A DNA stretch of 64,000 nt, from contig JANQMI010000214.1 of the NCBI GenBank assembly GCA_028280165.1, positions 132 to 64,131 of the forward strand, given 5' to 3'. The notes beneath the pieces were generated by a model that worked only from the letters and a program-made list of their open reading frames with translations, did not search any database and was not told where the DNA came from. The position numbers and the translations under genes are program-made. Source of the stretch: Oceanicaulis sp. Its GTDB lineage: Bacteria > Pseudomonadota > Alphaproteobacteria > Caulobacterales > Maricaulaceae. Below, piece after piece: positions 10,665-60,300 of this stretch (its first letter is position 1; each line of letters starts with the position of its first letter).

Positions 10665-11081
10665 TTATGGCTCCTGGGAAGAGACACACCGGTGCTTAAA
10701 GCAGAGGCGGTAATGCAGGTTTAACGAAGATCCGGGCTTCCCCCAAGAAAGCCCTGTGATTGATACTTGCGGGAGTCACAATGCGAATGGCTTTCCACGG
10801 CCTGTCTTTTTGGTAATTCAGGCAGGATTTGCAGGCGATGGTGGATAAACTGCAGCCAGATGCGGAAATTGCCGCACATACGCCTTTCGATCTGCCGAGC
10901 AGCCGCGCATTCCTTCGCGTGATTTGCCTGGGTCACCGCGAAAAATCACCGGGCGTTTGATGTTGCCCAAGGCCAGCCGCGTGATGCGGCGTCCTTCTGC
11001 GGGGTGTGGGCTGAGCCCAATCTGATATCTCGACAAGCTGACCCAACCCCGCCCATGCTCGGCTTTGAGTGGAGGGACATC

Positions 11082-11987
11082 ATGGATGCAGCGGCGCTAG
11101 ACGCGGTGCGGATTGATCTGGCACCTGGAGCGAGCGTGATCATGCCGATTGTGCTGGCCGTCATCATGATGTCGGTCGCGCTCAATCTTCACCTGTCTGA
11201 TTTCAAGATCATCAAGCGCGAACCCTGGCGGTTCGCCGGGGCGGCGACGCTGCAGCTCCTGGGGCTGCCGCTGCTGACATTGGGGCTGGTTCACCTGATC
11301 GATCCGATCCCGTCGATCGCGCTGGGCATGATTGTGGTGTCCTGCTGCCCCGGCGGAAATGTGTCGAATTTCTTTACCCATCTGGCTCGGGGCGACACGG
11401 CCCTTTCGGTCGCGTTGACCGCGACATCCAGCCTGTTTGCGGCGCTCCTTACACCGGTTTCGATCCTGTTTTGGACCAGTCTTTACGGGCCGGCTAATGC
11501 GCTCGTCAGCGAAATCAGTGTCGACCCTTGGGCCTTCGTCCTTCAAACGACGGTGCTATTGGCCGTACCGCTGGCGATTGGAATGGGCCTGGCCCACCGC
11601 TTTCCGAAGACCGCTGCGCGTATCCGCCCCGGCTTCATGGTTGCGGCCATTCTGGCGCTAACCTTTCTCGTCATAGGCGGTCTGGCGTCGAACTGGGAGA
11701 TTTTCACCGGAACCGCGCTGCTGGTCCTTGGCATCGCCATCGGACACAATGCGGCGGCCTTTGCCTTGGGGGCCATCGGCGCACGCCTGATGGGAATGGA
11801 AGCCAAGCAGCGCCGCTCGGTGACCGTTGAGGTGGGGATCCAGAATACCGGCCTGGCGCTGGTCATCCTGCTCTCCCAATTCGATGGATTAGGCGGTGCT
11901 GCCGCCATCACCGGGCTTTGGAGTGTCTGGCACCTGTTTGCCGGTGCCGGATTGACCGCCCTGTTCCGGTGGCGGTCTCATGCCTAA
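11082..11987 (+). CDS. Bile acid:sodium symporter (BASS) family transporter
   Basis: CCPGGNVSNFFTHLARGDTALSV and EVGIQNTGLA motifs, multiple TM helices; start re-chosen after RBS ggaggg. Confidence 0.9.
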   Translation: MDAAALDAVRIDLAPGASVIMPIVLAVIMMSVALNLHLSDFKIIKREPWRFAGAATLQLLGLPLLTLGLVHLIDPIPSIALGMIVVSCCPGGNVSNFFTHLARGDTALSVALTATSSLFAALLTPVSILFWTSLYGPANALVSEISVDPWAFVLQTTVLLAVPLAIGMGLAHRFPKTAARIRPGFMVAAILALTFLVIGGLASNWEIFTGTALLVLGIAIGHNAAAFALGAIGARLMGMEAKQRRSVTVEVGIQNTGLALVILLSQFDGLGGAAAITGLWSVWHLFAGAGLTALFRWRSHA

Positions 11988-11991
11988 CGGG

Positions 11992-12544
11992 CCTTCGAGA
12001 CGCGCTGCGCGCTCCTCGCCGATGAGGTGTTCGTCAAACTCCAACCGCCCTCATCCTGAGGAGTGAGCCCATGGCGAACGTCTCGAAGGACGCACCTCGC
12101 ATTGTGTTCGCCGCGAGGGGCAGGCTGTTATCCACACCACCACCGGCACCCGGTATACTGAGACCCTTTCTTTCCCATCCCTTCCTCTCTTTCCCGGCGA
12201 AGGCCGGGACCCAGAGATCACAAAATGCAGCGCTTGACGGCTCTGGGCCCCGACTTTCGTCGGGGAAGAGAAGTTTGTTTATAGACACCTCACTTTCGTC
12301 ATTCCCGCGCAGGCGGGAACCCAGAGCCGTCAAGCGCCGCGCCCTGCCATCCCTGGGTCCCCGCTTGCGCGGGGATGACGAGGAGGGGGTAGGCGCGCTT
12401 ATGTATTTTCATCAAGCACAAACGCCCCTCATCCTGAGGAGTGAGCCCTTGGCGAACGTCTCGAAGGACGCACCTCGCATTGTGTTCGCCGCGCGGGGAC
12501 GGTTGTTATCCGCACCACCGCCGGCACCCGGTATACTATGACCC
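11992..12544. repeat. Mosaic REP/BIME-like cluster: CTCATCCTGAGGAG..TCTCGAAGG units, two 84-bp REP doublets and a 119-bp direct duplication
   Basis: Doublets at 12187-12270 and 12297-12380; direct repeats 12048-12166 and 12426-12544 (offset 378, 9 mismatches counted by eye). Confidence 0.85.
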
Positions 12545-12582
12545 GCTCTTTGACATCACGAGCCTCTCTTCCGCGCCGTTTC

Positions 12583-12740
12583 AGGCCCGGAAACTCCCCG
12601 GTGATAGTCGTAATAGGAGACGAAATCCGGGCTTTGGTAAGAGTCCGTCCGGTCGGATATTCGCCCACCAAAAACCCCGATCTGGGAACCAGACCGGGGC
12701 TGTTGAGTGTCCGACGCCGTCAGGCATCGCAAGGCGAATA
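12583..12740. ncRNA. Candidate structured RNA-like element of unknown family
   Basis: Helices 12583-12591/12626-12634, 12652-12662/12705-12715 (11 bp with G-U), 12675-12685/12689-12699, and an alternative pairing 12658-12665/12733-12740. No known family recognised. Confidence 0.35.
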
Positions 12741-12845
12741 GCCGCCCACCGCCACCGGGCGTTCCTGGATCTTATGCATGCCCAGAATGCCGGACTGAGG
12801 CGCATTCAGGATCGAGCTGGACAGAAGCGAGCCATACACGCCCCC
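12741..12845 (-). pseudogene. sucB: Isolated 35-codon fragment of dihydrolipoamide succinyltransferase catalytic domain
   Basis: Minus strand reads [35 protein letters not shown], matching the SucB motif GGV(Y/F)[26 protein letters not shown]; no start and no rest of gene on either side. Confidence 0.8.
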
Positions 12846-12867
12846 TTGAGCCAAACCGCGCCTTGCG

Positions 12868-12882
12868 GTGAACTGTGTTCAC
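12868..12882. promoter_or_regulatory. Operator-like palindrome GTGAAC-N3-GTTCAC (site 1)
   Basis: gtgaac tgt gttcac, ending 20 bp before the ATG at 12903, just upstream of the RBS. Confidence 0.65.
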
Positions 12883-12902
12883 AAAATCAGGGGAGGATCG
12901 CC

Positions 12903-14687
12903 ATGGCTGACTATGATCTAAAGATCACCGGCGGCGTCATTTATTCAGGCGAGGGCGATGCGCCGGTCGCCGGCGATATCGGGATCAAGGCTGGCCGCAT
13001 CGTGGCGGTGGGCGAGGCGTCCGGCGATGCCACCGAAACGATTGACGCCAGTGGCTGCATCGTGACGCCGGGCTTCCTTGATGCTCACACCCATTATGAC
13101 GGCCAGGCCACCTGGGACGACCGGCTAGAACCCTCCATCAAACACGGTGTGACGACGGCGGTGATGGGCAATTGCGGGGTGGGTTTTGCGCCCGTACGGC
13201 CCAGTGATCATGAGCGCCTGATCAAGTTGATGGAAGGCGTGGAGGACATCCCTGGCACTGCGCTGGCTGAAGGTCTGACTTGGGAGTGGGAAAGCTTTCC
13301 CGACTATATGGACGCGTTGGAGCGTACCCCGCGCACCATGGATATCGCGGCCATGGTGGGCCACGATCCGTTACGCGTCTTCGTGATGGATGAAAGGGCG
13401 AGTTTTGACGCCCAGGCCACCGACGACGAAATTGCCAGGATGCGCGAGCTGGTCAATGAAGCGCTCGACGCCGGGGCGATCGGCTTTGCGACCGGACGCT
13501 CTGACCTGCATCGCACTGCCGATGGCGAATGGACTCCGGCCTCAGAAGCCACGGCCAAGGAGCTCGCCGGCATTGCCGAAGCCTTTAAGGGGCGCAGCCA
13601 TGGCGTGATCCAGGCGGTCAGCGATTTCGATCTGGAACGCGATGCGGAGAAATTCCCGGCCGAGTGGGCGGTGATCGAAGACTATGTGAAGGCGGCTGGC
13701 GGGCGGCCCTTCTCCATCTCGGTCATGCAGCGCGATTTCGCGCCCGACCAGTGGAAAAAAATCCTGACCGGTCTGGAAAAGCTCGATGCGGAGGGCTTCA
13801 CCGTGCGCGCGCAGGTTGCCCCGCGAGCGATTGGCGTTTTTCTGGGGCTGCAATGCACCTTCCACCCATTCATGGGGTATCCGGCCTATAAGGAAATCGC
13901 GCATCTGCCGCTCGATGAGCGTGTGGCGCTGATGAAGACGCCGGAGTTCAAAGCCAAAACGCTGGCTCAGACATCTGACAAGCTTGCGGGGCCGGGCAGC
14001 TCGATCCCACCGATTGCCGACATGCTGATCGAGGCCATGGAGTTTGCCGCTGAAAAGCTCTTCACCCTGTCCGAAAACCCTGATTACGAGCAGCCGCCGG
14101 AAAGCTCCATTGCCGCCAAGGCCCGCGCGCGGGGCGTGTCCGTGTGGGAACAGCTCTATGACACGGTCATCGACCGCGAAGGGCGGGAGCTCATCTACCT
14201 GCCGATCTATAACTATACCGAGCTAAGCTATGACAATGTCAAAGCCATGATGGACCATCCGCTGGCCATGATGGGTTTGAGCGATGGCGGAGCCCATGTG
14301 GGCACGGTGTGTGACGCCAGCTTCCCAACCTATCTGATGAGCTATTGGACCCGCGACCGCACCCGCGGCGACAAGATCTCCACCCAACGGGCGGTCCAGA
14401 TGCTAACCGCCGATATCGCTGATTATCTGGGCCTATCCGACCGGGCGCGCATCCGGCCGGGCTTGAAGGCCGATCTCAACGTCATTGATATGAACAAGCT
14501 GCGCCTGCACGCCCCGCGCCTGGTCCAGGACCTGCCTGCGGGCGGCCAGCGCTTGCTGCAAGACGCCGAAGGCTATCGCGCCACGATCGTGGCTGGCGAA
14601 GTTGTGGTGCGTGATGATGAAGTGACGGAGGCGAGGCCCGGACGGCTGGTGCGGGCCGGGCAGGAGAGGGCGGTGGCGGCGGAGTGA
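12903..14687 (+). CDS. N-acyl-D-amino-acid deacylase-like amidohydrolase
   Basis: TPGFLDAHTHYD, GVTTAVMGNCGVG, GLSDGGAH, PGLKADLNVID; RBS gggagg. The 5' extension in the ORF track is repeat sequence. Confidence 0.88.
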   Translation: MADYDLKITGGVIYSGEGDAPVAGDIGIKAGRIVAVGEASGDATETIDASGCIVTPGFLDAHTHYDGQATWDDRLEPSIKHGVTTAVMGNCGVGFAPVRPSDHERLIKLMEGVEDIPGTALAEGLTWEWESFPDYMDALERTPRTMDIAAMVGHDPLRVFVMDERASFDAQATDDEIARMRELVNEALDAGAIGFATGRSDLHRTADGEWTPASEATAKELAGIAEAFKGRSHGVIQAVSDFDLERDAEKFPAEWAVIEDYVKAAGGRPFSISVMQRDFAPDQWKKILTGLEKLDAEGFTVRAQVAPRAIGVFLGLQCTFHPFMGYPAYKEIAHLPLDERVALMKTPEFKAKTLAQTSDKLAGPGSSIPPIADMLIEAMEFAAEKLFTLSENPDYEQPPESSIAAKARARGVSVWEQLYDTVIDREGRELIYLPIYNYTELSYDNVKAMMDHPLAMMGLSDGGAHVGTVCDASFPTYLMSYWTRDRTRGDKISTQRAVQMLTADIADYLGLSDRARIRPGLKADLNVIDMNKLRLHAPRLVQDLPAGGQRLLQDAEGYRATIVAGEVVVRDDEVTEARPGRLVRAGQERAVAAE

Positions 14688-22429: not shown

Positions 22430-22444
22430 GTGAACACTGTTCAG
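22430..22444. promoter_or_regulatory. Operator-like palindrome GTGAAC-N3-GTTCAG (site 2, one mismatch)
   Basis: gtgaac act gttcag, about 60 bp upstream of the 22369 start of the five-gene minus-strand run. Confidence 0.6.
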
Positions 22445-29053: not shown

Positions 29054-29068
29054 GTGAACGCTGTTCAC
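29054..29068. promoter_or_regulatory. Operator-like palindrome GTGAAC-N3-GTTCAC (site 3)
   Basis: gtgaac gct gttcac, about 98 bp upstream of the diiron oxygenase ATG. Confidence 0.65.
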
Positions 29069-33762: not shown

Positions 33763-33858
33763 CCTTCGAGACACGCGTTTCACGCGCTCCTCAGGATGAG
33801 ATTTTCTTCGAGCTCCGACTTGCCTCATCCTGAGGAGGCCGAAGCCCGTCTCGAAGGG
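33763..33858. repeat. Inverted pair of CTCATCCTGAGGAG..TCTCGAAGG REP units
   Basis: ccttcgagac...ctcctcaggatgag then cctcatcctgaggag...gtctcgaaggg; same family as 11992-12090. Confidence 0.8.
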
Positions 33859-33955
33859 CGCAGCACGCCCCTAACGCCTCCGTGAACAGCTGTGACTTGG
33901 CTCTGGCGCCGACTGCGCCACATTAGGCGGAGGACACCCAGCCAAGAGAGTATCG

Positions 33956-41199: not shown

Positions 41200-41375
41200 C
41201 GTCATCCCGGACTTGATCCGGGACCGAGAGGCCATCGAATGAAAGCACCTGAAGCACTGGGTCCTCGTCTGCGCGGGGATGACGAGAGGAAGGCACCCCG
41301 ACGCCGTAGGCGTCGCAAGGGTGACCGCCCGCCCGCAGCGCGAGCGAGGACCGACAGGACGGACGTCCTGGAGGA
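41200..41375. repeat. CGTC-tagged REP doublet (41200-41284) plus an adjacent palindromic repeat
   Basis: cgtcatcccggacttgatccggga...gcgcggggatgacg, then gggtgaccgcccgcccgcagcgcgagcgagga. Confidence 0.75.
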
Positions 41376-49021: not shown

Positions 49022-49154
49022 CTCGAGCGCATTCGAGCGCACGATCCGTGCCTTGATGCGCAGGGTGTCTGTGGAACTAAGGGGTGGGGTGGAACTCATC
49101 CAGCGCCCTGGCTGCCCGCAACCGACCAAGGCTTCGCTCTGAAACCTCATCGTT

Positions 49155-49391
49155 CTCTTCCCCGACGAAGGTCGGGGCCTAGAGCCATTGGGCGCTGAGC
49201 GTGTGATCCTCTGGGTCCCGACCTTCGTCGGGAAAGAGATAAGAGTTGGGATGAAGGCTGTGTGGGGCACCGGCGCTTTTCCCACTCTCAAATGCCCCAT
49301 CACCACCTCTTTCCCAAACTTGATTTGGGACCCAGGGTCATCAAACGCGGCCTTTGATGATCTCTGGATCCCGACTTTTGTCGGGAAAGAG
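49155..49391. repeat. Two CTCT-tagged 84-85-bp REP doublets
   Basis: 49155-49238 (reverse-complement homologue of 12187-12270) and 49307-49391. Confidence 0.85.
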
Positions 49392-49562
49392 ATGGAGGGC
49401 AGAAAAGGTAGGCTCGATCCTGCACCCTCAACTTAACCCGGAGCGTCGGTGATCGGGGTACAGGTGAAACGGCCCGAGCACGTCCCAAACTGTCATGGTC
49501 CGGCTTGGTTCCCCGGATAAACCGGCTGAAAACAAACTGAATTCTGAGTGAGCGGTAAGACG

Positions 49563-59705: not shown

Positions 59706-60300
59706 TTATACCCCCTCGAACGCAGGGGCCCAGGGATGGCAGGGCGCAGCGTTTCATGGCTCTAGGTTCCCGCCTGCGTCGGGAAAGAGAGGAGGGTTTG
59801 AGATGGATAGGCGTAAATACCGTGTGGGAGGCGGTGCCGGCGCTCGATGATCTCCACCCCACCCGTCGGCTACGCCGACACCCTCCCCATCGAGGGGAGG
59901 GATGGATGTTCGGCCGAGTGTAGGGTTTGCACCCGTCCCTCCCCCTCGTGGGGAGGGTGAGCCGGAGCTCTGCTCCGGGTCGGGTGGGGGGCTGCGCCCA
60001 CGCTTGCCCTCATGAATCCCAGCTTCCACCGGGAAAGAGATACCAACGCCCTCGTCATCCCCACGAAGGTGGGGACCCAGAGATGGCAGGGCGCAGCGTT
60101 TCAAGGCTCTGGGTTCCCGCCTGCGCGGGAATGACGAAGGAGATGGAGGTTTCAGGCTATCTCCCGTCCCTCCCCTTGATGGGGAGGGTGTCCGCGTGAG
60201 CGGACGGGTGGGGTGGAGATCGTCGAGCGTCGGCGCTGCCCCCCACCCGACCAAGCCTTTCGGCTTGCCCACCCTCCCCACAGAGGGGGAGGGACAGGAG
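59706..60300. repeat. Dense mosaic of palindromic repeats between def and rmuC
   Basis: 84-bp doublets at 59706-59789 and 60053-60136, interleaved with CCCACCCG..CCCTCCCC..GGGGAGGG units in both orientations (about 59855-59900, 59933-59992, 60163-60215, 60240-60295). Confidence 0.88.

Follow-up and report, generated by a model that had tools for sequence, protein, structure and literature searches.

The window (the whole 64-kb stretch of DNA that was analysed) carries two plus-strand genes separated by a 916-bp spacer (11988-12902). Upstream of the spacer is a gene for a transporter of the SBF family (bile acid/sodium symporter family; 11004-11987; PF01758, E 8.6e-32), and downstream is a gene for an Amidohydro_3-family, D-aminoacylase-like amidohydrolase (12903-14687; PF07969, E 1.8e-48). 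The best matches of the amidohydrolase were found in two Oceanicaulis MAGs, with 91% and 83% protein identity, so the source of the window is an Oceanicaulis-like member of the Maricaulaceae. From the transporter towards the amidohydrolase, the spacer consists of a repeat mosaic, a structured element, a piece of sucB on the minus strand, 22 unremarkable bases, a palindrome and a ribosome-binding site, which is followed by the amidohydrolase start. The other ORFs in the spacer had no family match in Pfam, and no second captured gene piece was found among them. When the region 11500-13500 was scanned with Rfam and for tRNAs and tmRNAs, only sub-threshold microRNA-type matches to the long palindromes were returned, and none of the matches was to the structured element on the left of the sucB piece.

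Organisation of the transporter-amidohydrolase spacer

The repeat mosaic (12030-12578) is built from two direct-repeat copies (12030-12199 and 12408-12578; family D1), which are 150-170 nt in length with a period of 378. Between these copies is a 74-nt inverted repeat (12174-12247 and 12320-12393; family I1), made of REP-like palindromes. By using blastn within the window, additional copies of the mosaic repeats were found at 33763-33868, 41254-41288, 49153-49399 and 59711-60138; the last three of these, like 12174-12393, carry REP-like palindromes of the ATTCCCGCGCAGGCGGGAA type. In the coral metagenome, the REP-like palindromes reached a contig depth of 1000-3000x, indicating that they are common to many of the organisms present in it. 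They translate into the familiar spurious 'PAFAG...' and 'LRGNDE' peptides, and in Rfam they appeared only as sub-threshold look-alikes of microRNA precursors.

Three coral-metagenome runs (X1, X2 and X3) hold the locus, and their Logan contigs were used for comparison with the window. One X3 contig joins 12071 to 12450, with exactly one 378-bp unit missing. The 378-bp unit is polymorphic, and this points either to a recent tandem duplication or to a deletion via recombination between the copies.

The structured repeated element forms the left flank of the sucB piece (12540-12740), with folding z-scores of -3.4 and -3.5 on the two strands. In its closing stem, ATATTCGCC (12658-12666) pairs with GGCGAATA (12733-12740), and the stem stops exactly at 12740/12741, which is where the initial annotation had placed the left boundary of the sucB piece. 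The inverted-repeat arms at this junction are located at 12651-12665 and 12733-12747. On the minus strand, the repeated element includes a terminator-like hairpin (12670-12699; 11-bp stem, loop UUC, then UUUUU), which was evident from the sequence itself, present in both the minimum-free-energy and centroid structures and absent from the listing of the consensus terminator scan. In a copy of the element from X3, a stem change at 12685 (G>A) would retain the pairing as a wobble pair.

On the other side of the sucB piece, the palindrome GTGAACtgtGTTCAC (12868-12882), a candidate operator, is located 20 bases before the start codon of the amidohydrolase. It had been described as the right boundary of the sucB piece, but it lies 22 bases away from it and does not abut it. 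A pattern search of the window for GTGAAC-N3-GTTCAC identified 6 matches at ≤2 mismatches, compared to 1.8 expected. Two of the sites are exact (12868-12882 and 29054-29068) and one has a single mismatch (22430-22444). Each of these three lies in an intergenic region upstream of a gene: the first precedes the amidohydrolase (12903), the second the gene for an AurF-like di-iron oxygenase (29167) and the third a beta-lactamase-family gene (start 22369, minus strand). The palindrome was absent upstream of the amidohydrolase orthologues in the two Oceanicaulis MAGs. GTGAAC-N3-GTTCAC could be the operator of some regulator, and we regard it as a candidate.

Identification of a sucB fragment on the minus strand

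Translation of the window on the minus strand showed that positions 12741-12845 contain 105 bases, or 35 whole, stop-free codons, that are sucB-like and correspond to approximately residues 329-363 of the SucB protein of about 408 residues. The fragment matched the catalytic domain of the 2-oxoacid_dh family in Pfam (PF00198; 27.5 bits, E 2.7e-6, profile positions 156-189 of 232) and, with higher scores, both sucB equivalogs in NCBIfam (NF004309, 59.7 bits, E 3.3e-16, positions 329-362 of 408; TIGR01347, 55.9 bits). The top NCBIfam model for pyruvate-dehydrogenase E2 reached 17.6 bits, more than 40 bits below NF004309. As the sucB equivalogs far outscored the pyruvate-dehydrogenase E2 model, the fragment is specifically of the sucB type.

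At the DNA level, positions 12691-12900 were compared by blastn with two unrelated alphaproteobacterial sucB genes. The alignment covered exactly 12741-12845 in one of them (L082; 81%, E 1e-24) and 12747-12845 in the other (L081; 77%), and neither flank of the fragment was aligned to either gene. In frame, the fragment is preceded by RGLAQ and followed by YSPCDA and a stop codon, both unlike sucB. The edges of the fragment are therefore abrupt, because the blastn alignment stops at them and the in-frame flanks are not sucB. This agrees with the initial annotation, in which a 35-codon antisense match to SucB with abrupt ends had been described from the letters alone; Pfam, NCBIfam, blastn and the flanking frames all bear it out, and the similarity to sucB is significant for both protein (E 3.3e-16) and DNA (E 1e-24).

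The fragment does not have the architecture of a functional sucB (E2o), in which a lipoyl domain and a subunit-binding domain accompany a complete catalytic domain, as it covers only profile positions 329-362 of 408 between unrelated, stop-terminated flanking frames, and it is without the lipoyl domain, the remaining catalytic domain and the DHRxxDG active-site motif. Being truncated and having significant family-specific similarity, it has the character of an ectopic gene fragment or pseudogene relic. No further E2-like sequence was found in the 64-kb window, where the fragment is single-copy.

Junctions and likely donor of the fragment

Both junctions between sucB and non-sucB DNA are present in the reads, because each of them is crossed by an X1 contig with zero mismatches. 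A 235-nt contig (depth 11) covers 12540-12774 and spans the left junction, while a 923-nt contig (depth 8.8) covers 12774-13300 and spans the right junction. The coral runs are possibly the source data of the window assembly, in which case this support for the junctions is not independent. At the k-mer level, there was no sign of the assembly chimera that the initial annotation had named as a way in which its proposal could fail.

An assembly artefact could be imagined in which two contigs were joined via highly conserved sucB words, as the Logan contigs break at 12774, within the piece, and no 31-mer bridges its two halves by covering both of the diagnostic differences at 12744 and 12792. The break at 12774 can be explained by the words of 12745-12791, which are common to the locus and true sucB. 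The 47-nt unitig of this stretch had a depth of 27, which fits a single-copy locus together with the true sucB genes that share the same words. For an artefact, there would also have to be two independent truncated pieces of sucB whose ends happen to fall in one and the same shared 47-mer. Each junction was found within a contig that has no mismatches and equals the genome in depth. We consider an artefact highly improbable.

True sucB was also present in the coral runs, on contigs with a length of 442 nt (depth 8.85), 433 nt (depth 10.4) and, in X2, 243 nt. These contigs align to the window with 2-4 mismatches, starting at 12741, 12762 or 12808 and reaching 12842. Past the 12741 end they read GAGGTGGTGATCCGGCCGATGATGTATCTG (EVVIRPMMYL), and past 12842 they read CAGGGCGCGACCTTCACCATCTCCAACGGA (QGATFTISNG), the expected continuation of sucB; at both ends the window diverges from them at once. 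Based on mismatch counts on nested stretches, there are 5 differences between the fragment and the true sucB contigs over 105 bases, which is an identity of ~95%. The difference at 12792 (G to C, synonymous) was read directly, and the one at 12744 was placed from a k-mer break together with the two mismatches counted in 12741-12792. Two others are only bracketed, one in 12793-12818 and one in 12819-12842, and the last, at 12843, is synonymous.

The initial annotation also suggested that a conserved MSTP motif had decayed to LSSS in the copy. The decay was overstated: with two base differences in 12793-12842 between the fragment and the closest sucB contigs, at most two of the three motif residues could have been altered after copying. 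A native motif of GSLMSSPILN, in which M changed to L and P changed to S in the copy, would fit these differences, at positions that are bracketed and not read. GSLMSSPILN was seen in sibling X3 contigs and in several SucB pieces in the database.

In the same run, and at ~95% identity, the depth of the true sucB contig was 8.85 and that of the locus was 8.83, for contigs that are not tied to the same genome. From this depth and identity, we infer that the segment was probably donated by the sucB gene of the organism itself or of a very close relative.

Comparison with related loci

Orthologous loci were compared in the two Oceanicaulis MAGs (L001 and L002) and in a Maricaulis MAG (L004). The transporter orthologue sits immediately upstream of the amidohydrolase in all three. 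The spacer between them is about 225 bp with different palindromes in L002 and about 30-55 bp with no repeats noted in L001, and there is none (~0 bp) in L004, where the stop and start codons essentially overlap. Neither sucB-like sequence nor the rest of the window's spacer was found in the three loci. As the spacers of the relatives are 0-225 bp and do not contain the sucB piece, the insertion is recent, derived and lineage-specific. The ancestral state looks like a two-gene transporter-amidohydrolase operon.

In L002 (5777-6000), the same spacer contains its own unrelated palindromic repeat pair, of the CCCTCCCC...GGGGAGGG type. This indicates that the transporter-amidohydrolase spacer takes up repeats repeatedly, and it can be described as a hotspot that was independently remodelled in sister species.

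The amidohydrolase genes of the sister species have 79-83% DNA identity to that of the window, compared to ~95% between the fragment and sucB. Judged by this divergence, the sucB piece was acquired long after the lineage had separated from the sister species. A metagenome collection was also scanned with the shared 47-mer, which gave no exact match, and with a degenerate protein pattern of the SucB segment, for which the result was empty.

Origin of the sucB fragment

The 105 bases are probably an ectopic copy, without function, of a segment from within sucB, which was fixed by homology-independent insertion. The native flanks of the segment (CACCACCTC on the left and TCCGTTGGAG on the right) and the flanks in the window (GGCGAATA and TTGAGCCAAA, respectively) differ immediately at the junctions. 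No direct repeat bracketing the piece, target-site duplication or terminal (inverted) repeat was found at the junctions. The homology-independent route is favoured because both breakpoints are inside the sucB frame and the piece is flanked neither by homology nor by any of these repeats or duplications; in these respects, the junctions have the properties of end joining.

The copy would have become fixed in the transporter-amidohydrolase spacer after the lineage split from the sequenced Oceanicaulis relatives, and there are two routes by which this could have happened. A short sucB DNA fragment could have been ligated into a double-strand break, that is, by end joining with captured filler DNA. 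Alternatively, there could have been two template switches during replication at the hairpin-rich repeat element, which makes up the left junction. Either insertion would have been followed by neutral drift.

A precedent for the first route is available in another alphaproteobacterium, Sinorhizobium meliloti, in which end joining by Ku/LigD at a double-strand break in the chromosome was shown to incorporate heterologous DNA in both possible orientations (PMC6379672). The junctions here are similar in having neither homology nor target duplication. The S. meliloti experiment used an electroporated cassette, whereas here the insert is a natural 105-bp genomic piece and the mechanism is read from the scar alone. 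Neither Ku nor LigD was found among the scanned ORFs of the 64-kb window, which is part of the genome only. In eukaryotes, filler DNA and NUMT insertions are analogues of fragment capture.

In the initial annotation, DNA was proposed to have been captured from the chromosomal sucB locus by repeat-associated or illegitimate recombination. The origin from sucB stands in outline, given the ~95% identity to sucB in the same runs and the absence of the piece in relatives. The repeat-mediated route does not, as recombination between repeats could not excise the piece when both breakpoints are within the sucB coding region.

The association with repeats could still be explained if the piece had been cargo of a mobile REP/MITE-like repeat element and was brought by its transposition, since it is immediately adjacent to a structured and repeated element, within a mosaic of repeats, with the left junction at the foot of the element's stem. 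However, other copies of the element do not contain the sucB piece, which argues against it being cargo. In X1, a 92% copy of 12540-12706 runs into unrelated DNA, and in X3 a 90% copy of 12637-12725 has no sucB attached. Since X1 has only one allele of the flanking genes, its copy of the element is a paralogue rather than an allele with an empty site. In addition, the piece occurs only once in the window, and none of the scanned window ORFs was found to encode a transposase, REP-associated or otherwise. Transposition as cargo is thus very unlikely, and the suggested link to the repeats is circumstantial. The spacer as a whole is comparable to REP, BIME and MITE mosaics, as it consists of palindromic, structured, multi-copy elements, contains a 378-bp duplication that is polymorphic and varies among close relatives, but the sucB piece is single-copy and outside any repeat unit.

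Another possibility is that the piece is the remnant of a larger sucB (or sucAB) copy, duplicated or horizontally acquired, of which nearly all was deleted. The end state would be the same as that of a homology-independent insertion, as a longer copy trimmed by deletions looks identical, and failed horizontal transfers commonly yield pseudogenes in prokaryotes (PMC522871). However, there is no residual sucB similarity on either side in DNA or protein, and with only ~5% divergence any flanking sucB would be recognisable unless two deletions had removed it cleanly. In the relatives, the two genes are also closely spaced, and nothing indicates an ancestral insertion between them. As nothing sucB-like is found beside a piece that is only 5% diverged, later trimming of a longer ectopic copy is the weaker alternative to fragment insertion, and we regard it as unlikely.

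Prokaryotic intergenic DNA is known to contain truncated gene fragments, which form a recognised class (PMC522871; Pseudofinder, PMC9336565). The sucB piece is like these pseudogene relics in being short, promoterless, truncated and between intact genes, and in being recognisable only through similarity to its parent family. It differs from them in consisting of 35 mid-gene codons with clean edges and ~95% identity to the parent, and it did not decay in place, as the relatives have no gene at this site.

Possible functions of the sucB fragment

Lack of function is the default reading of the fragment. The spacer is probably transcribed on the plus strand, because the flanking genes are operon-like in relatives (0-55 bp apart in L001 and L004) and the scan found no plus-strand terminator in the spacer. 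In the scan for sigma-70-type promoters, one weak site was found in the first repeat copy (12131-12159) and none adjoining the sucB piece.

If a plus-strand RNA is made, it would carry 105 nt that are complementary to sucB mRNA, at ~95% to the true sucB, and the piece could therefore be a functional antisense module that lowers or tunes sucB expression by pairing over ~105 nt. The RNA would come from the transporter-amidohydrolase transcript or from the amidohydrolase leader, coupling the operon to the citric acid cycle. However, the piece is not conserved, since it is missing at the same site in both related Oceanicaulis genomes and had no exact match in the metagenome collection. The scans also found neither a promoter nor a terminator that would delimit a discrete RNA. 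Two of the five differences may be non-synonymous, and there is no sign of constraint. Known trans-acting bacterial sRNAs pair through short seeds, and a perfect-type duplex of 105 nt is far beyond this. The piece would resemble trans-encoded antisense RNAs in its complementarity but differs from them in its lack of conservation and in the length of the pairing, and no discrete transcription unit was found for it in the scans. An antisense function, whether of the piece itself or as a coupling of the operon to the citric acid cycle, is improbable.

It is even less probable that the captured segment has been co-opted and that a gene fragment has given rise to a new trans-antisense regulator. 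In that case, 105 nt of near-perfect antisense to sucB mRNA would be part of every operon transcript, and inducing the operon would lead to duplex-dependent cleavage or a translational block of the message for 2-oxoglutarate dehydrogenase E2.

The sucB piece is most likely an inert DNA-repair scar rather than a working part. As a single, young and probably neutral scar, it is of little importance alone. It does provide a clean natural case in which a segment from the interior of a gene was added to a bacterial chromosome without homology, and the same samples show both of its junctions as well as a probable donor with 95% identity. The case agrees with the laboratory demonstration that DNA can be captured by alphaproteobacterial end joining.

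The fragment is contained in a mechanical ORF of 44 codons on the minus strand (12720-12854), which is probably not a gene. The frame is open, with a TTG start and AAGG 8 nt upstream as a weak ribosome-binding site, and approximately 20 nt past its stop there is a terminator-like hairpin with a U-run, so the ORF could be taken for a small gene encoding a 44-residue peptide. However, the hairpin is a member of a repeat family, the scan found no promoter, and there is no homologous free-standing small protein. A small gene at this position is hardly credible.

A protein search with the 44-residue ORF did identify many PF00198 proteins of 47-77 residues, some of them on contigs of >100 kb. A conserved family of orphan sucB mini-ORFs was considered and rejected, as the sequences of these proteins are frameshifted continuations of sucB. 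The 44-codon ORF and similar short '2-oxoacid_dh' proteins in the databases should therefore not be annotated as genes. Two of the short-protein loci were examined, and both are inside sucA-sucB-lpdA operons that are broken by frameshifts in long-read assemblies. The short '2-oxoacid_dh' proteins in L081 (3020-4520) and L082 (1-662) are frameshifted sucB fragments and not independent genes.
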